Positions 46,188 through 62,013 of a DNA stretch of 64,000 bases are shown piece after piece. The stretch's first letter is position 1. Every line of letters starts with the position of its first letter. Source of the DNA: a virus; the IMG/VR virus record IMGVR_UViG_3300037461_000951, positions 1 through 64,000 of that record; one strand, written 5' to 3'. The notes under the pieces were generated by a model. That model searched no databases, had not been told where the DNA came from, and saw nothing but the letters and a program-made list of their open reading frames with translations. A program made the translations under genes and the position numbers.

Positions 46188-47498
46188 TCAAGATAAAGAT
46201 TCTGATGCTTGAATCCACTGAACTAAAGCTTCAGAAAATCCCGTTAAGCGAATCCATGGGCCATAGCCCACACTGTTTTGGTATGACGCCACATTCACCA
46301 TGTAACCTAAATTTTTAGGTGAAGGAACGGGATCGTGTGATTCTTCATCAGTCATCACAATTAAACGATCATACGGTTCTTTATTCATTATTTGAACTGC
46401 ACGACCTAAAAGTGTATTACCATGATGAGTGGCACAAATGGCATCTCGTAATGCCATGCCTTGCCGTGGTGGCATTCGAATCACATCACTGGAAAATGTA
46501 AATACAGCACATTCTTCAGCAAGAGCATTGACTAAAATCGCTAATCCAGCCGCCGCATCCAAACGATCTAATTCTGATTTTTGGGAAATTTTAGTTCCCA
46601 CCATGGAGCCACTGACATCTACCAATACAATAGTTTTACCCGGTAATTTGGGTAACATACTGACGGACAATTGCATAGCTAAATCTAAAGTCTTTTCCAA
46701 TTCCACGGCATGTCGTGCCGCCGCAATGAATCGAAACGGTAAAGCTTTAGAGAATTTAGCACCTGACAACAAGACATCATGAATTAAATCAACATCCACT
46801 TGAGCTTGTAGCATGTTACGAAGATTTCGTAACAATGCCAAGTAACCCAATTTTTTCTCTTTCAGCAATCGAGTGAATGTTTCTTTTTTATCCACACCGG
46901 CAGATAATGCAACTTCCCATGTATCGGGAGTTTTCAGTTCCCCATCACGGAGACGTTTCCATAATGCAGATTGAATTTCATTGACGGGTTTGGGATGAAC
47001 CAGTCGCATCACATCTAACAGTTTAATACTTTTATCACGATTGTATTTTGCCAGAGCGTATTCATCAAACTTATGAAACGCTCGCTGTAAGCCGTACTTC
47101 ACCTGTTTAGATAAAGGTTGTTTTTTATCAGCCCAATACAGCGATAAAAATTCAGCCAATTCATCGGCACGTTGTACTGTGTTGAAGATAGTATCACCTA
47201 CCAAACGTCCAGATGCTTTGGGATGACGACACAGCTCTCGTGCTAACAACAATGAAGCGTGACGAATCCGGTACTGTGTTCTGGCTTCAATAGCTAAAGC
47301 AGCTACATCTTTCGGATCACACTTGACAACTAATTCTTTAATACGAGTTGCAATATCTTGACCGGATTCATAAAATTGATCTTCCCACAATAAACACGCC
47401 AATACAGCACGACGTAATTCTTTTATGGGAGTTAATGGAATAGCAGGAGCACCTTCATGAGTGAAGGTGGTGCATTTAGCTTTGGTATTGAGTTGCAT
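46188..47498 (-). CDS. rsr: Ro60/Rsr TROVE-vWA RNA-binding protein
   Basis: FYESG, FDEY.LAKY, TWE..LS, ALLRNLRN, LPFRF, vWA DVSGSM and TDE. Confidence 0.95.
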   Translation of the reverse strand: MQLNTKAKCTTFTHEGAPAIPLTPIKELRRAVLACLLWEDQFYESGQDIATRIKELVVKCDPKDVAALAIEARTQYRIRHASLLLARELCRHPKASGRLVGDTIFNTVQRADELAEFLSLYWADKKQPLSKQVKYGLQRAFHKFDEYALAKYNRDKSIKLLDVMRLVHPKPVNEIQSALWKRLRDGELKTPDTWEVALSAGVDKKETFTRLLKEKKLGYLALLRNLRNMLQAQVDVDLIHDVLLSGAKFSKALPFRFIAAARHAVELEKTLDLAMQLSVSMLPKLPGKTIVLVDVSGSMVGTKISQKSELDRLDAAAGLAILVNALAEECAVFTFSSDVIRMPPRQGMALRDAICATHHGNTLLGRAVQIMNKEPYDRLIVMTDEESHDPVPSPKNLGYMVNVASYQNSVGYGPWIRLTGFSEALVQWIQASESLS

Positions 47499-51689: not shown

Positions 51690-52173
51690 TTGGAGATTTT
51701 TGACCATTTTTGAAGAGTTTTTGTGGGTTTCCCAAGTGTTTATTCAAGTCGTAACACTCCCAAGTGTTACGACGACTTGAAGTTTCAAAAAACGAAATTA
51801 TTAAAAATCCATCATCAACAGTCTGTCCATCGGACAGACAGCTAATGAGGAGTCTGAACGAACACAATAACTCCCTTCTTCGAAGGTCGTATTGGTTCGT
51901 CCCGACCTCTGATTCTCATTAGCTGGCTACACTCTTTTGGTTGGACTTCGATATGGAAACTGATACTGCATACTGTGAAAAACATCTTATAAAAATCCCA
52001 TGTTTCGCATTTTTTAATATTGCGCCGCAACCCACTCATGTAATCCGTCTCACAACCCACCAAATAGTCGATTGTAGCCATTTAAATGTTTCGGGAATGA
52101 CAACGTAGCGGGTCGTTATCAAAGTGGCTAAAATTGCCATTTTGGTGGCTTCCCTTCGATGTCGAAGTTTCGG

Positions 52174-52202
52174 TTGACAACGGGAGTGGTGGCGAGTATA
52201 GT
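52174..52202 (+). promoter_or_regulatory. sigma70-type promoter
   Basis: TTGACA-17 nt-TATAGT. Confidence 0.75.
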
Positions 52203-52206
52203 GAGG

Positions 52207-52280
52207 ATGCTGTGGGGTAGTATTGCTTCACATCATGCTTAATTCTCCGTAAAGCCCGAATTGCAAGATTCGGGTTTTTT
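52207..52280 (+). ncRNA. putative ~70-nt small RNA
   Basis: Lies between the consensus promoter and terminator GCCCGAAT-TGCAAG-ATTCGGGT-TTTTT; internal hairpin TGTGGGGTA/TGCTTCACA; no ORF. Confidence 0.55.
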
Positions 52281-52421
52281 AATCTTGTTTAAAATGTTTC
52301 CATACATTTTTCCAAAAAAGATCTAAAGAGTTACAATGCGTCCAATAATCATCTTCGTAGCTCACATTCCAAAAAACCCAAAGCCAGTGAATGTAAAATT
52401 TCATAGTAAACTCTCCAACGG

Positions 52422-52459
52422 TTACTGGATAGTATAAATATATTTATACTATCCAGTAA
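52422..52459. repeat. perfect 38-bp palindrome
   Basis: TTACTGGATAGTATAAATA|TATTTATACTATCCAGTAA with no spacer. Confidence 0.9.
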
Positions 52460-52463
52460 AATT

Positions 52464-53045
52464 TTAAAATCTGGTTGTTAAAATATCTATCAACCAGTAT
52501 TTATCGATCTTACTGAGATCGATATAATGTATGGACTCTTTTAAAAAATCTTGTATGTTTTTGGGTTGAATACGGTAATATGCAACACGTGTTTCATCAT
52601 TACCCCCTTCTTTGGCAGCTTTTAAGAACTTTAAACGAATCCAGCGTTGAACAGTTCGGGGGTCTACATTTAAGATGTGTGCTAATCCCTCTGCGGTATA
52701 GCCCACAATCGTTTCATCGCGTTCCACTTTCATTCGCCAACCATCTCGAAAACGGAACCCATCAACGGCATCGGGTGTTCGACGGTATCCAGCTCTACGA
52801 AGAGCACGGCTGGCTTCTTCATGCGTTAGGTGGGGCATTTTACGTAGTAAAATAATTTCTGGTGCCGTCCATCGACGGACGGGGTTTTTATTGGAGATGG
52901 GTTTTAGACCCAGTTGTCTAGCTCTTTTTGTTAGTTTATCAGTTCTGCATTGCCAAATTTGGGCTTGTGTCGAGATGGCACCCAAGATATAAGGTGGGGT
53001 ATACAATTCCACAATGCGGGCATCCATCTCGGGAGTAAAATTCAT
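52464..53045 (-). CDS. HTH DNA-binding protein (excisionase/MerR-like C-terminal HTH)
   Basis: YT...LA..L.V..RTV.RWI....LKA; RWT..E Myb-like segment. Confidence 0.7.
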   Translation of the reverse strand: MNFTPEMDARIVELYTPPYILGAISTQAQIWQCRTDKLTKRARQLGLKPISNKNPVRRWTAPEIILLRKMPHLTHEEASRALRRAGYRRTPDAVDGFRFRDGWRMKVERDETIVGYTAEGLAHILNVDPRTVQRWIRLKFLKAAKEGGNDETRVAYYRIQPKNIQDFLKESIHYIDLSKIDKYWLIDILTTRF

Positions 53046-53061
53046 GGCGTGTTTCCAAGTT

Positions 53062-53077
53062 TGTTTGACATGAAACA
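53062..53077. promoter_or_regulatory. parS-like site
   Basis: TGTTTGACATGAAACA, 14/16 to TGTTTCACGTGAAACA; intergenic. Confidence 0.55.
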
Positions 53078-54868
53078 TCATTCGTGTTCCGTTAAATGGA
53101 CTCTTATTAAATTTCTGGCACTAGCGATAATCTTTTTAACGTTTTTCTCACCGATTACTCGTTGAATTTTATCGGGATTACGAATAACATCTTGCCATGT
53201 GGTGATTCCCATGGCGGCTAGTTTTTTAGCTCTGACACCACCAATGCCCGGAAGTTGGACTAAAGCACACAATTCGGCACTCACTCCATATCTTAAACGA
53301 ATGGGAAGTATTTTGAGCATGTCGGGAATGCCCATCTTTGCAATGCCCATAATCCATGAGATCGCACCGACAATTCTTTCAGCGTCACTTTGTAAAGGTC
53401 GGGATTGCGGAGTTGCTTTATCTCCGCATAATAAATCATGAACATCTCGACTGAGCGTGGATTGTTTTAAATACGGTCCATTTCTCCACACTTGACGAAG
53501 CGCATTGAAATATGTTTGGACGGTCGCTTCTTCACTGCGGGGAATATACGGGAGTTGCATGGAAGGTGCTGATAATCCATACGCGATGCAAAGATCGTTC
53601 TTCCATAAATTTTGGCGTTCAATATGCGAGAAACATTGCCACCAGTGGTGGACATCTTCGGGATGAAAATATAAAGTGGCGGCAACGGTTCCCAAAGCGG
53701 TAATGCTAAAGGTATTGTCGGGATTGATGACAATGGCTTTCCAGTTTTGGAGTGCGTTTAACACCTCATCAATGTGTTGCTTTTCCAGTGGACTTTGGAT
53801 ACTGGCTAAGGTACGGTGATACCATGTGTACATCGTATCATAATCTTTGATGACTTTATTTTTGATCTCCGCACACAAATGAAAAGCCAGTGCATACGTA
53901 TCCAATAAGGTGGAGGTGACATTGCGGGGATGGGCAACTTTTTCCTTCCATTCGGGAATATTGTCGCAAATTAAGAACACATTGCCATAAGGTGCTTTTC
54001 CAAATCTTCCAGCACGACCGGCTTCTTGAACAATGTCTAGTTCATCCACGGGTTGAATACCTCGTGCAACGCCTACTATAATTGCGTTCTGCGCAGAAGT
54101 GTTACATCCCCATGCGAGGGCTGAGGTGCTAATTAATGCGGCGATGCGATCATTATTTTCTGATTCAAATCTTTTTAATAAGTCATGACGAGTTTCAGTA
54201 TCTAAATCGGCATTATAAAATTCACAAGCAATACCTAAATCTTTTAAAATAGCATCAATTCTTCGTCCCGTGTTTTTATCGTGAACAAATACGAGTGTAG
54301 ATTCATTTTGATGCTCTTGCACAATTTCGATGGCTTTACGAATTTTATCATCTTGATTTTCCCAATATGAACCGAAGGCGTTATGGGGAATAAAATTCCA
54401 GCGAAGTTCAGTAGGTCGCCATGTGGAGTTAATAATTTCCGAAGGTTTTTTATTGAGGGTGGTGAGCCATTGTGCAAATTCTTCACAATTGGGCATGGTG
54501 GCGGACATGAACCACACTTTAGCTTGTGGTGCTATCTCACAAAAACGCATGATGGATGCTTCAATGACATGTCCTCGACCTTCCATGGTCACTCCGTGTG
54601 CTTCATCTACCACGAGTAATTGAACATGTTTGACCCATTGATAGTGTTCACTGTAATGATTACGAGTCACACTATCTAATAATTCCGCAGTCATGATGAG
54701 GATATCAGCCGTTTCCGCTTCCTTCATCATTTCCAAACGGATTTTTTGACTGGTCAGTGTATCTCCAGTCAGTTGTAAAATCTTTTTATCTGGAAAAAGC
54801 TTACTCCAATCTTCGTATTTTTCATTGGAGAGTGCTTTAAGCGGGGCTGAGAAAATAACCTTTGCCAT
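53078..54868 (-). CDS. Ski2/Hel308-like SF2 helicase, C-terminal fragment (motif Ia onward)
   Basis: APLKAL..EK, TGD, VDEAH, MSAT, RP..L, TS.LAWG.N, Q.AGRAGR, HhH LPGIG..RA; no Walker A. Confidence 0.9.
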   Translation of the reverse strand: MAKVIFSAPLKALSNEKYEDWSKLFPDKKILQLTGDTLTSQKIRLEMMKEAETADILIMTAELLDSVTRNHYSEHYQWVKHVQLLVVDEAHGVTMEGRGHVIEASIMRFCEIAPQAKVWFMSATMPNCEEFAQWLTTLNKKPSEIINSTWRPTELRWNFIPHNAFGSYWENQDDKIRKAIEIVQEHQNESTLVFVHDKNTGRRIDAILKDLGIACEFYNADLDTETRHDLLKRFESENNDRIAALISTSALAWGCNTSAQNAIIVGVARGIQPVDELDIVQEAGRAGRFGKAPYGNVFLICDNIPEWKEKVAHPRNVTSTLLDTYALAFHLCAEIKNKVIKDYDTMYTWYHRTLASIQSPLEKQHIDEVLNALQNWKAIVINPDNTFSITALGTVAATLYFHPEDVHHWWQCFSHIERQNLWKNDLCIAYGLSAPSMQLPYIPRSEEATVQTYFNALRQVWRNGPYLKQSTLSRDVHDLLCGDKATPQSRPLQSDAERIVGAISWIMGIAKMGIPDMLKILPIRLRYGVSAELCALVQLPGIGGVRAKKLAAMGITTWQDVIRNPDKIQRVIGEKNVKKIIASARNLIRVHLTEHE

Positions 54869-54870
54869 AA

Positions 54871-55785
54871 TCATTCACCTTTTTTGTCGATGTAGTACAT
54901 ATTGTTGATGATTTCTTTCAGCTCAAGATTTAAATCTTTTTTCCATTCTATTTGCATGTGACAACTTATGCAAAGAGTTACTAAGTTTTGTGGTTGATTT
55001 AAAACGTTTAAATCTTCACCACTTCGTATTGGAATTAAGTGGTGAACGTGTAAAATTTTTTCTGATTCTTGACACAGTAAACACTGATTGTTATCTCTTT
55101 CTTTTATTTCTTTACTTAATTCAGTCCAAAAAATACCTCTACTTCTTTTTATACTGTCATTCCATCGATAGTGTTCTTCTTTATGTTTTATCCAAGGTAA
55201 TTTTGTAAGATCGTTTCCGTAATTATTTTTGAGCGTTTGTAACGCTTTTTCAGATCTATTTTTTATAAAGATAGGATCTGCATATTTTGCAGACATTATT
55301 GCTGTGTATTTCTCTTTTACTTTTTGATCATGCATTGGATTATTTTCTCCAGTGCGACGTTCATAGTTACCACCAGGTAATCGTTGTGCTTCGTGTCCTT
55401 TTTCAAGGAATTCTTTAAAAAGTTCTGGATTTTTTTCCCACCGTTTTTTAGTTTGTAAGCCACCTAATCTACCGCAAGCAGCCATTTTAGCACGATGCTC
55501 GTCAGTATCTGGCCCCCAAGTAGGTCTGTTTTCTCTACGAGTTTGTACTGCTTTAGCTTTTAATTCTGGTACTTGACTAGCATTGGTAATATTCTCACCA
55601 TATTTACGTTGGAAAGTTAATTTACTCTTTTCAGTAGCTTGAGATCTATCTCGATTTCTTTGAAATTGTTTTAATTTCTCAGTACGCATGTGGTGTCCTC
55701 TTGCGTAAAGAGCATTTGGTTTTTTCACCAGTTGTAAACAACCACAGTGACAAAACGGAATCGATTTTCGAATGACCTTTGCCAT
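54871..55785 (-). CDS. HNH homing endonuclease
   Basis: C-terminal RD...C..C...LHVHH...N...NL.TLC.SCH; N-terminal C.CGC and basic repeats. Confidence 0.85.
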   Translation of the reverse strand: MAKVIRKSIPFCHCGCLQLVKKPNALYARGHHMRTEKLKQFQRNRDRSQATEKSKLTFQRKYGENITNASQVPELKAKAVQTRRENRPTWGPDTDEHRAKMAACGRLGGLQTKKRWEKNPELFKEFLEKGHEAQRLPGGNYERRTGENNPMHDQKVKEKYTAIMSAKYADPIFIKNRSEKALQTLKNNYGNDLTKLPWIKHKEEHYRWNDSIKRSRGIFWTELSKEIKERDNNQCLLCQESEKILHVHHLIPIRSGEDLNVLNQPQNLVTLCISCHMQIEWKKDLNLELKEIINNMYYIDKKGE

Positions 55786-55812
55786 GTTACGTTTCCATGT
55801 GGGTTTTCCAGT

Positions 55813-56139
55813 TTAACCACCAGGATATGGTGTGTGGTGATTAGTAAAATCTAAATATTGGTAGATATTTAACCATATTTTTTGAATATTTGTTGAACCG
55901 TCATATTGGTATGGAAAATAGATTGCTTGATCATCTTTTGCAATGAATCGGGGACACGAAGGACTACCAAAACCATCGTCAAATTCTTGATGAAGAATTG
56001 GATGGTTGTTGTTAATGATTTCCGCGTTTATTGGATCATACCATCCGGGCGCTTCATTCTTTTCAACAGCTTGAAAAATTATTACACCTGATGAAAAATC
56101 AAAGTCTAGTTCAGTAAGCCAGTCATAAATAGTAGCCAT
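55813..56139 (-). CDS. hypothetical protein
   Basis: FD.GFG...P.F.A....IYFP.QYDG pattern seen in small phage proteins. Confidence 0.55.
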   Translation of the reverse strand: MATIYDWLTELDFDFSSGVIIFQAVEKNEAPGWYDPINAEIINNNHPILHQEFDDGFGSPSCPRFIAKDDQAIYFPYQYDGSTNIQKIWLNIYQYLDFTNHHTPYPGG

Positions 56140-56142
56140 GTA

Positions 56143-56373
56143 TTAATCCTCATCATCTTCTTCAAATTGATCTTCTTCAAATTGATCTGCTGCCCAAATA
56201 TCTAACACTTCGTTGTTAAAAAATTCAGACATACATTCATATACTCCTGGGATGCTCATAAAACTGTAGTGATCATCTGTTAGATATTTATATACAAGAT
56301 CAGTTAAAATTTCATCAAACTCTTCATTTGTCATTTCACTGTAGTCTACACTATCAGTATCAATGGGTAACAT
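56143..56373 (-). CDS. small acidic protein
   Basis: Very D/E-rich 76 aa. Confidence 0.45.
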   Translation of the reverse strand: MLPIDTDSVDYSEMTNEEFDEILTDLVYKYLTDDHYSFMSIPGVYECMSEFFNNEVLDIWAADQFEEDQFEEDDED

Positions 56374-56656
56374 CTGTATGTATTCCAGTGGTTGTGGGTT
56401 GCTAAAGCATGGTCAGTTTAACATATATCAAAGTTATGGTCAAATCGTTTTATTCAGGTATGTGAATATAATAGCGATGACATATTATAGGTTCTGTAAT
56501 GAAAAAGTTTATGTTGATTTTGTTATATATCATGATTGTTTGTGTTCTTATATATGGGGCATATTGGTTGAATAAGAATGGATCTTATTTTTTATGGTAT
56601 GAGGATATGGTAAAAGACACCATTCGTGGAATGGTAAAAGCAGAGGCATTGAAAAA

Positions 56657-56685
56657 TTGATATGTGTTTTATTCAGGTATATCAT
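56657..56685 (+). promoter_or_regulatory. sigma70-type promoter
   Basis: TTGATA-17 nt-TATCAT upstream of the 56714 gene. Confidence 0.55.
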
Positions 56686-56713
56686 AGCTCAATCCATCGT
56701 TGGAGTTATCGTG

Positions 56714-57484
56714 ATGAAGATACTACATGAGTTGTTAGCGACTGAAAAGAACTTCACTTCGCAAGTGAACAAGTTGCAGTTGGAGACTTTGCAAAAGTTT
56801 GATAAAGATCATTATTTTAAGGGCTATATCAAAACTTTAAAAATGCTTAAAGATGCTCCGAATAACGAAGAATTGGAGCTTGCGGGGAGTGAAAAGAAAG
56901 AATTAGTAACGACGGTTAAGCAGACGTTAGAATATTTGCTGACGTTCTGGATCAATGCTGAAGATTTGCAAGCTACGAAGAATGTGACGAATCAACGAGC
57001 CGTGGCAAATGTGGAGATCAATGGAAAGACTTTGTTGACAAATCTTCCCGTGGATGAGTTGATGGGTTTGGAATCACGGTTGTTAGATTTGCGGAAAGTT
57101 TTTGAAAAAATGCCAACTTTAGATGCGTCAAAGACCTGGATTCCGTCCTCGGTCAGTGATGGGGCTTGGGAGGCGGCAACAGTCGATGTCACAGTTAAAA
57201 CTGAAAAGGTTTTGACTCCAGTAGTGTTGTATGAAGCCACCAAGGAACACCCGGCGCAGGTGAAAGAAGTTTCTAAAGATGAAGTGGTGGGAACGTTTAC
57301 CACGAAACATTTTTCAGGCGCTTCAACCTCGTTGCAAAAAGCGCAGTGTTTAGAGCGTTTGGACGTGTTGTTGGTGGAAATTAAAAGAGCTAGAATGCGG
57401 GCGAATACGGTAGCGATTCAATCCGTTTCTGTGGGTCAGTCGATTGTGGATTTTATTACGTCCGGCACGATAGCTCAGGTATAA
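56714..57484 (+). CDS. conserved uncharacterised helical protein adjacent to structured RNA
   Basis: GGAG RBS; motifs ATK..TNQ.A.A.V, P...L..LE..L, PTLD, EAT.EHPAQV, FSGA, AR.RAN of a family I recall from bacteria and phages (not verified). Confidence 0.85.
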   Translation: MKILHELLATEKNFTSQVNKLQLETLQKFDKDHYFKGYIKTLKMLKDAPNNEELELAGSEKKELVTTVKQTLEYLLTFWINAEDLQATKNVTNQRAVANVEINGKTLLTNLPVDELMGLESRLLDLRKVFEKMPTLDASKTWIPSSVSDGAWEAATVDVTVKTEKVLTPVVLYEATKEHPAQVKEVSKDEVVGTFTTKHFSGASTSLQKAQCLERLDVLLVEIKRARMRANTVAIQSVSVGQSIVDFITSGTIAQV

Positions 57485-57489
57485 TTTGA

Positions 57490-57699
57490 ATGTAGTGCAG
57501 TGTTATCGTTGTAGTGAGTGTTGAGCATCCACCACGGTATGGGTGGCGAAGGCTACATACTTGAAAGTTCGAATCTTTCCTCGCTCACTGAATGTTTGAA
57601 GCTTTCGAATATTCAGTGAGCGAGTGCCGGAATTGGTAGACGGGTGGAAACCGTGTTACGGAATGGATGTGTGTTGGTGGTTATCGTGTTTCACTACAT
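57490..57699 (+). ncRNA. permuted type II tRNA-like domain (Leu/Ser-like)
   Basis: Variable arm; T arm GAAAG-UUCGAAU-CUUUC; ~21-bp looped acceptor; D arm CCGGAAUUGGUAGACGG; outer stem GUAGUGA/UCACUAC. Confidence 0.75.
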
Positions 57700-57713
57700 G
57701 CGTTGTTTTAAAG

Positions 57714-57879
57714 ATGTATGAAAGAATCTTGGGTTATTGACTGTGAAAGAGTTGGTTCGACTCCAACACTCCTCGCCCAATGATACTGGGAGTTGAGTAT
57801 CATTCGGGAGGAGTGCGTATGCTGGTTGAGTACATCACAAATGTCGATATTGAAATAACAGCAAGTGAATTTCATGCAT
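57714..57879 (+). ncRNA. permuted type I tRNA-like domain
   Basis: T arm GUUGG-UUCGACU-CCAAC; acceptor ACUCCUC/GAGGAGU with extension; D-like GUAU..GG..GUAC; UGUGA/UCACA; outer AUGUAUGAAA/UUUCAUGCAU. Confidence 0.75.
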
Positions 57880-57901
57880 GTGACCAATAAGATCACAATG
57901 G

Positions 57902-57940
57902 GCCGTCAATATTTGGCTATAATGTTGACGGCTTTCTTCT
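57902..57940 (+). terminator. intrinsic terminator
   Basis: GCCGTCAATATT...AATGTTGACGGC followed by TTTCTTCT. Confidence 0.75.
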
Positions 57941-58005
57941 ATTGACAGTTGATCCTGTATGCGCTATGTTATTCATAAATGTCATACACACTTGAAGATT
58001 AAATC

Positions 58006-58212
58006 ATGACGAAAGATGAGTGGATTGCCAGGCGTCAAGAAAACTCTGAATTTACCTGGGATGAAATTTTAGCATCGGGTTATGATGCCATGCCTTGTTC
58101 TTGTCAATTGAAAGGTTGTTTAGGTTGGAAGTTGCTCAAAGTGCAAAATTCTTTTATTCCAGTCAAGAAAAAAGTGAGTTTGGTCAGTCAAACTCCACCA
58201 GAGGCGGCTTAG
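58006..58212 (+). CDS. small Cys-containing protein
   Basis: Downstream of TTGACA-17-TATGTT (57942); C.C....C.GW motif. Confidence 0.55.
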   Translation: MTKDEWIARRQENSEFTWDEILASGYDAMPCSCQLKGCLGWKLLKVQNSFIPVKKKVSLVSQTPPEAA

Positions 58213-58222
58213 GAGATTTTCA

Positions 58223-58501
58223 ATGTTGGTCAGATGTAAAAAATGTGGATGGATACACATGGGGTTATCGATAGGATCAGCCGAAGAATGCATTCGTGAA
58301 TTTAATTCGATGTACGTGCAATTGACCAATGAGCAGCAAGCGGATTATTATAATTCTAATCCTGCACGATTAAAAGATTATCAACACTGTCATCGGTGTA
58401 ATGAAAATTACAAACAGATGGAAGTGATTGCTTTTAATGATGTAAGAGCTGGTAAAATTAGTGGACGAACTTTGCAATCGGTGTTATTACCTAATGAGTG
58501 A
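58223..58501 (+). CDS. zinc-ribbon protein
   Basis: CKKCGWIH...HCHRC; GGAG RBS. Confidence 0.6.
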   Translation: MLVRCKKCGWIHMGLSIGSAEECIREFNSMYVQLTNEQQADYYNSNPARLKDYQHCHRCNENYKQMEVIAFNDVRAGKISGRTLQSVLLPNE

Positions 58502-58700
58502 CTTAGTTTTGATGCAGTGCATAGAGTGTGGTTGGTTGCATGAAGCGATTTACCCATCATTGGATTTTAAGGATGAGCATAAATATTTACACTGCCATAA
58601 TTGTTATGGGGATTATTTAAATTTTGAACCCGTAAAAGATTTAAGTTTAGTCAATTTGAAGCGGTATAAAGCGGGTGTTAAGATTTTGGTAGATTATTAG
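58494..58700 (+). CDS. zinc-ribbon protein, paralog of the previous gene
   Basis: CIECGWLH...HCHNC. Confidence 0.6.
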   Translation: MSDLVLMQCIECGWLHEAIYPSLDFKDEHKYLHCHNCYGDYLNFEPVKDLSLVNLKRYKAGVKILVDY

Positions 58701-58718
58701 CTGTTGGTATGGTAGAGT

Positions 58719-58745
58719 AAAAACCCGGATTAAACCGGGTTTTTT
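58719..58745. terminator. bidirectional terminator
   Basis: AAAAACCCGG-ATTAAA-CCGGGTTTTTT between convergent genes. Confidence 0.8.
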
Positions 58746-58747
58746 AA

Positions 58748-59500
58748 TTATGTATGTTTTTCTTCTTTTGTCATTAAAAAGATAGCTTTTGGATCGGAGT
58801 ATTTTTCTTTTAATTTTAGATTTTTTTCAGGTGAGAGTGTTTTTGTATCAAAGTAAATTTTCTTATCAAGATCAAAGCATTCATTATATATGAAATGGTC
58901 TATCCAATTATTGTAGTCTGTTTCAGAGAAAATGTTAACGTTGATCCGTTTATCGTAACCTACACTGGGAGGTTGGTATATAATGCTTTTTGTTTTAGGT
59001 TTAACGTGATTTCTAGCAAAATATAAATTATTAATTCTTCTACTTAAACTGGATAGAATACCTCCACTTTTAACGAGTTTTTTGTCTAGCATTATTTTTG
59101 TTATTAATGTATAAAAATCAATGATTTCACCGTTATCAATTTTTGTAGTGAGTGTTTTTAATCTTTCAACAATAGAAAAATAAGGTTCTTGATATTTTTC
59201 AAGATCTGTTTTGGGTGGTACTATGGGTTGTTGTGGATCTTCTTTTTTAATGGGAGGTGTGATGGCATGTGTTTCGTTTTTTAATTCTGTGTTGTTAAGG
59301 ATTCTGGTTTTTAGGGGTGTTCTAAATGGAATTCCAGTAGCTTTGAGAGCTTGTTCAAATTGCTCTTGAACATTATTTCGTAATTGAATTTTGTGGGTAT
59401 TCCAGTACACTGTATCGTTGATTGCTACAAATTTTAGATATTGTAAGTAATGAACGACGTGGTCTAATTTGAAATAAAAATCTTCGTTAAAGTCTTGCAT
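58748..59500 (-). CDS. hypothetical protein
   Basis: 250 aa, AGGTG RBS. Confidence 0.55.
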   Translation of the reverse strand: MQDFNEDFYFKLDHVVHYLQYLKFVAINDTVYWNTHKIQLRNNVQEQFEQALKATGIPFRTPLKTRILNNTELKNETHAITPPIKKEDPQQPIVPPKTDLEKYQEPYFSIVERLKTLTTKIDNGEIIDFYTLITKIMLDKKLVKSGGILSSLSRRINNLYFARNHVKPKTKSIIYQPPSVGYDKRINVNIFSETDYNNWIDHFIYNECFDLDKKIYFDTKTLSPEKNLKLKEKYSDPKAIFLMTKEEKHT

Positions 59501-59516
59501 GTGTCACCTTAATTTA

Positions 59517-59849
59517 TTACAGTTGTTTTAAAATGTAAGAGAGTGCTTCAAACTCTGGGTTAAAGAGTTTGGTGGGAATCACTGCACTGCTGATGAGTAC
59601 AAAAATGATAATGCCAATGATAAGAGTAATACATCCAATTCTTTTCATTTCTGCATCTGTATTTGCTAGTTCTTTATTTTTGGTATGAGGAATTAACTTG
59701 ATAGCGATTAAGATAAAAATAAAGTCAAGAATTAAAATAGTAATTCCTTCAATATAAGCTTGTTTGATAAGAGCAGCCCATAAATATTCTGTAGTGACAT
59801 TGAGTTTTTGGGCTAGTGCTTGTAGCAATTCTAAAGTTTTGTCATTCAT
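59517..59849 (-). CDS. membrane protein
   Basis: Two hydrophobic segments; LA.KL.VT.EYLW..L..QA N-terminus. Confidence 0.6.
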   Translation of the reverse strand: MNDKTLELLQALAQKLNVTTEYLWAALIKQAYIEGITILILDFIFILIAIKLIPHTKNKELANTDAEMKRIGCITLIIGIIIFVLISSAVIPTKLFNPEFEALSYILKQL

Positions 59850-60191
59850 TTAAAGTTCTCCAGAAGTTATTCCAAGATTCATTGAATCTGCTGATAAGCA
59901 AAGTGCTTTGTATTGATCATGTTTTTCTTTAGCGATTTTAATTTTATTTAAGTCTCCTGTTTTTTCTGCATTACTGAGTTCTTTAGCGAGTTTGATTAAA
60001 ACTCGAAAATTAGTCACAATTCTAATCATTAAAGTTCTTAAGTAGGTGTTTAAATAGGTTTATATTTTTCTACTTTGTCCACATTACAATGTGGACAATA
60101 ATAATGAATACCTTCGTTGGTTTCGATAAAGTATCTCCATTGATGCTTTCCTGATAATTTACAAAAAAGAATTTTGATGTAGTTATACACA

Positions 60192-61040
60192 TTAATCTCC
60201 ATAAAGAATTTTGGCGATAGCAAGTTCTGCACAGATTGTTTTTCCTGAACTGGTTGCGGTGCCTAAAATTAAATTACAATCTTTATTCCAAACATTGGAA
60301 TGATATACTGTGGTTTGCACATGATTAAATTCTTTAAATGGGTAGCGAATAAAAGGCCACTGTTCGGTGGGAACACACACTTGTTCGGTGTCGATGTCCC
60401 AATTTTTGAAGTTAGAGTTTTTTGGAAAAGTGGTATGAGATTTAATAGCTAATGTTTCAATTTTACGTTCAATCTCGGGTGGTACTGCCGACATTTGGTA
60501 GTTTTGATCTTTAAATGGATTCTCTTTTAATGGATAATTTCTAAAAGCGTTTTCCATTTTATTGAAACCGCTTTTACTGCATTGTCCAAAGATCGAACAA
60601 CCATAAAAAACGGCTCCATCAGATTGACGTGTGCGTTTTACCGTGTGTACCCGATTCTGAACACATTTACAAAAGCGATTTTGTTGTTGCATCAAATCTA
60701 CGACCTTGTTCATGTGATTCACTCGGTCGGTTAAACGCTCTTGTACGGTAGTATCACCTTCTACTCGTAAAATTTTACTTTCTTGATAACAAATTTTACC
60801 GGCAAAGCGATCCCATAAAATGATACGAATAGCATCTTCTCCAACACTTCGAGTGAGTCCTTCTCGTTCTTCAACGGTCGTATAAATATGACATTCTAAT
60901 CCATGGACCGGGTAACGATGGCAAATAACCAATTCTGTGCCACGGGTGGGCGTACTGATATGGTAGTCGTTGGGTCCGAAATAATGGTCAGCCCAAGCAG
61001 TAAAATCTTGTTTGGTTAAAGTAACGAATTCTTTGCTCAT
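60192..61040 (-). CDS. Ski2-like helicase N-terminal fragment (Q motif and Walker A) fused to an unknown domain and zinc ribbon
   Basis: Ends PFKEFNHVQ...NLILGTATSSGKTICAELAI; internal CKC...FYGCS....C. Confidence 0.85.
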   Translation of the reverse strand: MSKEFVTLTKQDFTAWADHYFGPNDYHISTPTRGTELVICHRYPVHGLECHIYTTVEEREGLTRSVGEDAIRIILWDRFAGKICYQESKILRVEGDTTVQERLTDRVNHMNKVVDLMQQQNRFCKCVQNRVHTVKRTRQSDGAVFYGCSIFGQCSKSGFNKMENAFRNYPLKENPFKDQNYQMSAVPPEIERKIETLAIKSHTTFPKNSNFKNWDIDTEQVCVPTEQWPFIRYPFKEFNHVQTTVYHSNVWNKDCNLILGTATSSGKTICAELAIAKILYGD

Positions 61041-61105
61041 GGTATGTTCATGTGGTGGTGTGGGTAAATGCAGTATAGCATATATTAATATGATAGTGCA
61101 AGTGT

Positions 61106-61627
61106 TTACTCTTTATTAACAAAGAATTTTTTATAAGCGGACAAGATGGCTGCTTTGGCAGCGTAATCTACTGGATCTCCAGATTTAACGGGCATTAAAC
61201 TGAGACTCGCTTTAAAATAACGAACTAGATGTTGCCAAATTTCATCGTTGTCATTAATAAATATCCATCGTTTGGATGCAACGAAGATGTGGTTATTTTT
61301 TGGATCTTTAATGTTAAAAAATCCCATGAAGCGACAGTCAAAGGTTCGACAAACGGTGGGGACACGATCATGGATGGAACAACCTTGTGGAACTAAATAA
61401 GTACACTCTCCATTGGGTTTGTGTTTTAAATGATATCTGTTTTCTGATTTTGAAAATTTGGTTTTAAAGTTGAGTTTGATTTCATGAGGATAGAGTTGTG
61501 CGTTGACAAATCCAGTACAACACGCATGACATTCTCCACATGGAACAGCAATTCCTTTTTCTTGGCCTTCTCCAGTATCTTTTACCCATTGAGATACATA
61601 AACATTGACTTTAGTTAATTCTTTCAT
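61106..61627 (-). CDS. YkgJ/UPF0153-like CxxCxxCC Zn/Fe-chelating protein
   Basis: CGECHACC...C.YL...GCSIH...P.VCR.FDC. Confidence 0.8.
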   Translation of the reverse strand: MKELTKVNVYVSQWVKDTGEGQEKGIAVPCGECHACCTGFVNAQLYPHEIKLNFKTKFSKSENRYHLKHKPNGECTYLVPQGCSIHDRVPTVCRTFDCRFMGFFNIKDPKNNHIFVASKRWIFINDNDEIWQHLVRYFKASLSLMPVKSGDPVDYAAKAAILSAYKKFFVNKE

Positions 61628-61686
61628 GGCGATGATTCACAAAAAGGTTTTAAGAATAAAGCCCGGAGAGTATCCGGGCTTGGTGA

Positions 61687-62013
61687 TTATTTCAGTTCCA
61701 GAATTAAATCTTCAGGTTGGATGACATAACCAAACTCGCTACGTTGTTCATATCGATGTTTTTTTACTGCGAAGTAATAAACACCTTGCGCATCATCCCC
61801 ATTGATGGCTGCACGAACCATGAGTTCATCTTCATCCAAAGTGGGATCATCTACATCGCGTTCCCAACACATCGTTTCAATGAGTTGACCTTTATTTTTT
61901 TTCAGCCAGTATAAATAATGAGCCTCTACACTGGTGGCTTTAGTGGGAAGTACAATAACATTAAGATCTTGTTCATATTGTTCAGGAAAAAAGTGTCGTT
62001 GATTGTCGTTCAT
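61687..62013 (-). CDS. hypothetical protein
   Basis: Coupled to upstream ORF; hairpin AAGCCCGGA/TCCGGGCTT downstream. Confidence 0.5.
   Translation of the reverse strand: MNDNQRHFFPEQYEQDLNVIVLPTKATSVEAHYLYWLKKNKGQLIETMCWERDVDDPTLDEDELMVRAAINGDDAQGVYYFAVKKHRYEQRSEFGYVIQPEDLILELK

Follow-up and report, generated by a model that had tools for sequence, protein, structure and literature searches.

In Aeromonas phage Aeh1, the gene nrdA is split by the HNH gene mobE (NrdA-a/MobE/NrdA-b), and the polypeptides reassemble into an active reductase, helped by insertion-derived tails (Crona et al. 2010, PMC3045599). Related splits are those of the T4 topoisomerase genes 39/60, with mobA, and of gene 43 of Aeromonas phages 25 and 44RR (PMC2988022, PMC2677866), and Dassa et al. 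(2009, PMC2677866) described fractured genes with split inteins and, between the pieces, a free-standing homing endonuclease gene (HEG). Here we analyze a superfamily 2 (SF2) helicase of the Hel308 type that is encoded in two pieces, an N-half and a C-half, 5.3 kb apart in the virus record IMGVR_UViG_3300037461_000951 of IMG/VR; the window, meaning the whole stretch of DNA analyzed, is the first 64 kb (64,000 nucleotides) of this 111,066-bp single-contig record, for which CheckV estimates a completeness of 75%. We consider it likely that the helicase was fragmented by a homing endonuclease, that its two chains act as a heterodimer, and that the gap between the halves later grew and was reshuffled.

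The locus resembles Aeh1 nrdA in several respects: the gene is contiguous in relatives and appears cut, inside its catalytic domain, by a free-standing HNH-type HEG; both pieces are intact open reading frames (ORFs) with their own stop and start, and with no intron or intein; and two relatives, L010 and L016, have the exact N / HEG / C layout. It differs from Aeh1 in enzyme class, being a Hel308-type helicase of SF2 whose RecA1 domain is broken between Walker A and motif Ia; in the arrangement of the halves, which in the window are separated by 5.3 kb holding about 10 genes and an opposite-strand module and in some relatives stand in C-then-N order; in that the split at this same site is recurrent, being found in about one fifth of family clusters; and in that the helicase tails are only 2–9 residues long. 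Function as separate polypeptides has been shown for Aeh1, whereas for the phage helicase we infer it. The fractured genes described by Dassa et al. likewise comprise a phage DNA-metabolism gene in two pieces with a HEG between, and the relatives L006 and L007 have that arrangement at another site; unlike those genes, the helicase has no intein halves at the Walker A/Ia break, so the peptide bond cannot re-form. The archaeal Hel308/Hjm helicases and the lipothrixvirus helicase (phrog_6819; PDB 2P6R, 2VA8, 2ZJ8, 9B15) match the phage protein in sequence from RecA1 to the helix-hairpin-helix (HhH) domain, and the entire Hel308 chain can be superposed on a model of L008, a fused homologue. These known helicases are single chains, unlike the helicase of the window, and the phage family, unlike them, adds an N-terminal α+β domain, often with a Topo-type Zn ribbon; here both travel with the Walker A piece.

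The two half-genes and their domains are as follows.

60192–61040, minus strand: N-half gene, 282 amino acids (aa), ending in GTATSSGKTICAELAIAKILYGD and a stop codon.
N-half residues 1–120: α+β N-terminal domain.
N-half residues ~121–150: Topo-type C4 Zn ribbon.
N-half residues 182–206: disordered linker.
N-half residues ~230–282: Q motif, strand β1, Walker A (GTATSSGKT) and helix α1, then the stop.
53078–54868, minus strand: C-half gene, 596 aa from the ATG at 54868; an alternative ATG lies at 54874 (ORF 53078–54874).
C-half motifs: motif Ia (APLKAL), DEAH, SAT, Helicase_C with QEAGRAGR, a Hel308-like winged-helix (WH)/ratchet region and a C-terminal HhH domain.

The two ORFs match different parts of the same enzyme. 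Specifically, the Pfam DEAD match on the C-half begins at profile position 47 of 167 and is followed by Helicase_C (residues 177–292, with QEAGRAGR at residue 281) and HHH_5 (residues 538–587), and the match to phrog_6819 ("Holliday junction branch migration helicase") begins at profile position 62 of 645. Against solved structures, the C-half aligns with Hel308 from residue 70 through the HhH domain (E 1.7e-31), with C-half residues 197–581 corresponding to Hel308 residues 281–676. A profile of N-half homologues matches Brr2 over the Q-motif/Walker A/α1 segment (E 1.4e-15), and the Hel308 match of the C-half and the Brr2 match of the N-half meet at the same residue. Because the matches divide in this way, the two ORFs are complementary, non-overlapping parts of one Hel308-type motor. 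The complete Hel308/Ski2-like RecA1 motif set (Q, Walker A, Ia, DExH, SAT) is obtained only from both ORFs together, and the RecA2 motifs IV–VI, including the arginine finger QxxGRxGR, are present in the C-half, as are the winged-helix, ratchet and C-terminal HhH elements of a Hel308/Ski2-like helicase. No single polypeptide carries the motor core, which is interrupted by the stop at 60192–60194 and a new start at 54868, 5.3 kb away. The probable true start of the C-half is the ATG at 54868 (MAKVIFSAPLKAL), 6 nt after a Shine-Dalgarno (SD)-like AAGGTGA. A preliminary description of the window had proposed a Ski2/Hel308-like helicase split into two intact genes 5.3 kb apart, the first ending after the Q motif and Walker A and the second beginning at motif Ia; both ORFs, and the position of the break between them, are borne out by the ORFs themselves, by Pfam, and by the Hel308 and Brr2 matches.

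The break is exact. In a joint alignment with one-ORF homologues, the end of the N-half and the start of the C-half lie at most ~2 columns apart, with nothing lost or duplicated, in agreement with the earlier proposal that the joined halves give a gap-free SF2 domain. To locate the break in three dimensions, we used an AlphaFold model of the natural fused homologue L008 as a stand-in for the complete enzyme (mean predicted local distance difference test score, pLDDT, 87). The best Foldseek matches of this model are whole Hel308/Hjm chains (E 1e-34; target-normalised template modelling score, TM-score, 0.63–0.67), and the break maps to a 2-residue loop between helix 244–259 (GKT at 243–245) and strand 262–267 (motif Ia). 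The N-half stops 12 residues after GKT, and the C-half opens at motif Ia.

The part of the N-half that precedes the motor is less readily assigned. No whole-length family for the N-half is present in Pfam or PHROGs, and a Foldseek comparison of the N-half model with the PDB gave no significant match; in VIA-align, the N-terminal domain gave weak, common α+β matches (Z 5–6; DR_1245, PsiB, YbjN and type III secretion (T3SS) chaperone-like folds). The first ~150 N-half residues, comprising the α+β domain with a conserved GEDAIR motif, also occur as standalone ORFs of 146–196 codons in many other viral or metagenomic contigs (L023–L031, L051–L066 and L069–L070), and the N-terminal domain is therefore a separate module.

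As a single sequence, the N-half has no match among viral contigs, and relatives were found by a profile scan; the presence of both halves was judged only on contigs with enough flank. The layout of N-half, 4.8-kb gap and C-half recurs in L003/L004, an independent IMG/VR contig, and in L037, a contig from activated sludge, with collinear synteny between the window and L003 across the region. The preliminary description had named confirmation of the assembly as a check, and this recurrence of the layout refutes misassembly, which we reject as an explanation. Each half is single-copy in the genome, a fused paralogue is absent, and both halves are present, at most ~6 kb apart, on every contig with enough flank. 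Between the window and L003, the ratio of nonsynonymous to synonymous substitution rates (dN/dS) amounts to 0.093 in the N-half and 0.062 in the C-half (dS ~0.9–1.3), as compared with 0.056–0.21 for flanking genes. Relaxed selection on either half, which had been put forward as a reason to abandon the proposal, is not seen, and pseudogene decay is rejected on the basis of these values and of motif conservation.

The split site is conserved as well. All 31 clusters of standalone N-halves (270–297 aa, 25–94% identity) end 10–15 residues after GKT; the 22 standalone N-halves that were aligned share F..N..Q and TSSGKT without exception; and, by our own count, 14 of the 27 invariant columns of the N-half alignment fall within the last 48 residues. 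DExH, SAT and QxxGRAGR are intact in all split C-halves examined. A profile search covered 1.84 billion representatives; of its top hits, 94 (representatives at 50% identity) carry the segment from the Q motif to α1, and 19 of these, from several subfamilies, stop at most 9 residues after α1. Mini-proteins of 74–81 aa are among them: P0096, P0143 and P0146 start with M, consist solely of the Q motif, Walker A and helix α1, and terminate at this site, and they resemble minimal N-subunits belonging to helicases without an N-terminal domain.

Relatives of both kinds that the preliminary description had called for, fused and equally split, were found: the 31 standalone N-half clusters on one side, and one-ORF homologues on the other. 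The latter include L001, a 675-aa protein of a 595-kb uncultured phage, and homologues of 852–941 aa that also carry the N-terminal domain (L008, L009, L012, L015, L017, L019 and P0032–P0036). Fused forms occur only at 35% identity or less. The sole host-linked relatives found, L067 and L068 (genome contigs of Pseudoalteromonas umbrosa and P. peptidolytica, presumably prophages), are distant (26–30% identity in the N part) and are fused at the Walker A/Ia site; the L068 helicase is one ORF, and the L067 helicase is interrupted near C-half residue 290.

A HEG adjoins the break in the window and in relatives. In L010/L022 and in L016, a HEG is the only insert between the halves, with overlapping stops and starts; the L010 HEG comprises a DUF7487-like region and a DUF559 nuclease, and the L016 HEG comprises three copies of NUMOD3 and an HNH domain. 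In the window, the corresponding elements are as follows.

54871–55785, minus strand: free-standing gene for an HNH homing endonuclease of 304 aa, immediately upstream of the C-half, with a TGA stop codon that overlaps the alternative ATG at 54874.
55771–55785, minus strand: direct repeat copy 1, 15 nt, ATGGCAAAGGTCATT, at the start of the HNH gene.
54854–54868, minus strand: direct repeat copy 2, ATGGCAAAGGTTATT, at the start of the C-half; the L003 counterpart reads ATGGCAAAGATTTTG.

The HNH protein of the window is homologous to the HEG of L010/L022 (E 2e-31, 209 residues) and to that of L016 (E 2e-7), and these are its only homologues among all fetched loci. The endonucleases at L010:10789-11754 and at window positions 54871–55785 share ~200 N-terminal residues (33% identity) and have different ends (DUF559/Vsr-like versus HNH), which looks like nuclease-domain swapping on a common DNA-binding part. 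The helicase of L012 is uninterrupted and 72–74% identical to the split helicase of L010, the break falling between L012 residues 306 and 309; such a pattern of presence and absence would be expected of a mobile endonuclease gene. As had been noticed previously, the HNH gene and the C-half share their start, with a match of 14 of 15 nt between ATGGCAAAGGTCATT and ATGGCAAAGGTTATT. L003 does not have the HEG of the window, and its C-half start diverges after ATGGCAAAG; the shared 15-nt starts would fit a duplication of the junction when the HEG entered. An uninterrupted gene in relatives, a free-standing HEG at the break, and retention of both fragments (as judged from dN/dS, length and motifs) are thus all observed, and a homing endonuclease is most likely the cause of the split.

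A tree of the helicase core places the window, L003 and L006 in a fully supported split clade that is sister to the fused L008, L007 and P0032, and places L010 and L016 in a distant clade together with the fused L012. Constraining all split forms to one clade costs 134 log-likelihood units (approximately unbiased (AU) test, p 2e-10), and parsimony on the split and fused states gives three changes. Because a single split clade is rejected and three changes are needed, either the same site was hit more than once, or the HEG was lost by conversion to an intact allele. Other positions in the gene are also interrupted: L007 carries a full LAGLIDADG intein near C-half residue 66; L006:36-3082 and L007:9998-15156 carry a split intein with a ROS_MUCR/NUMOD3/DUF559-type HEG near C-half residue 255 (between WG and CNT); L041, a close relative of L006, is without the split intein; and L018, L013 and L042–L044 have further breaks, without an intein, near residues 265–295.

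These observations suggest the following course of events. A free-standing HEG would have cut a Hel308-type SF2 helicase gene in the loop between helix α1 (after Walker A) and strand β2 (motif Ia), the two pieces would have become separate genes, and gene gain and rearrangement would later have carried the halves 5.3 kb apart. In the resulting enzyme, the N subunit would supply the N-terminal domain, the Zn ribbon, the Q motif, β1, the P-loop and α1; the C subunit would supply the rest of RecA1 (Ia, DEAH, SAT), RecA2 with its arginine finger, and the WH, ratchet and HhH domains; and the chains would co-fold by fragment complementation, with one ATP site built from both. We infer the physical assembly of the two chains, their ATPase and unwinding activity, and the role of a HEG as the original cause in the lineage of the window; the split enzyme very probably still works as a two-chain enzyme. 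The earlier proposal of an ATPase site formed by two polypeptides, by analogy with Aeh1 nrdA, is strongly supported by comparative evidence, namely the conserved and recurrent split, purifying selection, retained motifs, the HEG at the break, and permuted gene order.

Between the halves in the window lie about 10 genes, of which the following elements remain to be listed.

55813–56373, minus strand: helicase-strand gap genes, comprising a 108-aa ORF (55813–56139) kept in L003 and an acidic 76-aa ORF (56143–56373) that is variable.
56657–58700, plus strand: opposite-strand module, comprising a DUF7873 gene (56657–57484), a conserved non-coding RNA region (57485–57935) and three small Zn-ribbon ORFs (58006–58700).
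58714–58750 (hairpin near 58719–58744), no strand assigned: bidirectional intrinsic terminator, with A-run, GC hairpin and U-run, between convergent genes.
58748–60202, minus strand: cassette of four small genes downstream of the N-half, encoding a 250-aa protein, a 110-aa membrane protein (phrog_1486), a 59-aa protein and a ~50-aa Zn-ribbon ORF that overlaps the N-half stop.

The opposite-strand genes and the terminator are those that the preliminary description had reported. In L003 and L034–L037, the opposite-strand module forms the conserved backbone of the gap; across relatives of the window clade, the shared backbone consists of the three Zn-ribbon ORFs, the conserved non-coding region, the DUF7873 gene and the 108-aa ORF. 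Of the variable cassettes, two occur in the window only, namely the 1.5-kb four-gene block by the N-half and the HNH gene; a third, in L003, is another HNH gene, on the other strand. The four-gene cassette is missing at that position in L003 and L034–L036, and one of its ORFs has a distant homologue elsewhere in L003. The gap measures only ~1 kb in L045 (50% identity), and across relatives it is 0.7–1 kb, 5 kb, or permuted: in L005, L006, L039 and L041, the two genes share a strand and the C-half gene precedes the N-half gene by 0.5–0.9 kb.

A first question for the two-chain reading is whether the halves could instead be rejoined before use, by split-intein trans-splicing, RNA splicing or trans-splicing, ribosomal bypass, or programmed excision of the 5.3-kb element (of the skin/nifD type). 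Rejoining devices do occur in relatives, namely the split inteins with a HEG near C-half residue 255 in L006 and L007 and, in L007, the full LAGLIDADG intein. Neither the window nor any relative examined, however, has intein halves at the Walker A/Ia break: the junction leaves no room for an N-intein on the first piece or for a C-intein ending in HN before C/S/T on the second, a Pfam search of either half gives no Intein_splicing match, and no residues are to spare, in keeping with the absence of intein motifs reported earlier. Likewise, Rfam detects no group I or II intron family in 52000–62000 even at E ≤ 1, none of the gap ORFs searched gave a recombinase domain, the gap is not flanked by direct repeats, and the two junctions share no repeat. 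Genes on the opposite strand and a bidirectional terminator lie within the gap, and the C-before-N order in L005, L006, L039 and L041 is beyond repair by excision or cis-splicing. Cis-splicing, already judged unlikely in the preliminary description, and excision are therefore ruled out as a general mechanism, repair by excision or inversion is rejected for want of a recombinase and because of the permuted order, and we regard rejoining of any kind as extremely unlikely.

It is also unlikely, though less so, that the pieces no longer form a helicase, being either decaying remnants or proteins that each serve a purpose of their own (in the case of the N-half, DNA binding through its Zn ribbon and N-terminal domain; in that of the C-half, DNA binding or scaffolding that does not depend on ATP). 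The occurrence of the first ~150 residues of the N-half as a standalone protein in many other phages indicates that this domain can act alone, and the two genes are in different transcription units. Yet dN/dS is 0.06–0.09 for both halves, and within the N-half conservation is strongest in the helicase tail, where the last 48 residues account for 14 of the 27 invariant columns. Every split C-half examined retains Walker B, SAT and the arginine-finger motif, the halves co-occur on every contig with enough flank, and the mini N-pieces of 74–81 aa, being purely Q motif, P-loop and α1, are hard to assign a role other than completing RecA1. A further, distinctly improbable reading is that the split is adaptive, through timed or conditional assembly gating (an AND gate) or through destruction of the HEG target site, giving immunity to further cleavage. 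The location of the halves in separate transcription units with different upstream signals, and the persistence of the split over deep divergence even without a HEG (L003, L041), would suit it, but nothing points to differential regulation, persistence is expected anyway since the halves could be fused again only by an exact deletion or by recombination with an intact allele, and gap size and gene order vary so much that neutral drift is a better fit than a finely set circuit. The AND gate of the preliminary description is not supported; the data are explained without it if a selfish element broke the gene and the break was neutral and tolerated. Somewhat speculatively, and with low expectation on our part, the loop after α1 could be a natural "universal split site" of the P-loop motor, such that a ~74-residue piece (Q motif, β1, P-loop, α1) docks non-covalently into a RecA1 lacking its central strand, and phages could use it as a two-component switch for assembly timing or endonuclease immunity.

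Fragmentation by a homing endonuclease with retained two-chain function remains the preferred reading, and several points weigh against it. β1 is a central strand of the RecA fold, and assembly would need co-folding of the two chains. The extra tails at the break are only 2–9 residues long, and the insertion-derived tails of Aeh1 NrdA are essential (PMC3045599). In the window, 4.4 kb separate the HEG from the N-half, and the close relative L003 does not have this HEG, which may therefore have reached a site that was split before, without having caused the split. Finally, the N-half has no clear SD sequence upstream, where an extended −10-like TGCTATACT is found ~35 nt away; of the ribosome-binding sites attributed to both halves in the preliminary description, that of the C-half (AAGGTGA before ATG 54868) stands and that of the N-half does not. 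A promoter scan of the region performed no better than with shuffled sequences.

The surroundings of the split gene hold further elements. Throughout the split clade, small paralogous Zn-ribbon ORFs (CxxC...HCxxC), pointing either way, lie beside the 3′ end of the N-half gene (window 58006–58700, plus strand; L045:392-598; L038:4566-4817), and they may be linked to the split helicase. The DUF7873 gene is followed by a non-coding stretch (window 57485–57935, plus strand) that is conserved with L003 far above synonymous sites and comprises two tandem units with the order T-arm, 7-nt acceptor-like strand, hairpin, complementary strand and D-arm, the hairpin showing a compensatory change. This is the permuted tRNA-like topology of the bacterial Y RNA-like YrlA. 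Rfam and ARAGORN give no match to the 57485–57935 RNA, and Rfam finds no known RNA in the gap. At 46188–47498 (minus strand), the window encodes a 436-aa Ro60/Rsr orthologue with TROVE and vWA_Ro60 domains, and the two may constitute a phage Ro60/Y-RNA pair.

No published split Hel308-type phage helicase was found in the literature searched, an absence that in itself proves nothing. To our knowledge, few phage enzymes survive HEG fragmentation without splicing, namely NrdA, T4 topoisomerase and gp43. The present case adds an SF2 helicase cut inside its ATP-binding domain, in which the Walker A lysine and the Walker B and arginine-finger residues would be on different chains. The cut is ancient, is found in about one fifth of family clusters, and outlasts kilobase drift of the halves or a swap of their order. 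It provides a natural test of the tolerance of a RecA-fold motor to fragmentation, and a ready point of division for helicases engineered in two parts. In annotation, the labels pseudogene and "truncated helicase" should be avoided for both halves. More broadly, selfish elements, comprising HEGs, inteins and split inteins, clearly reshape this one gene family.

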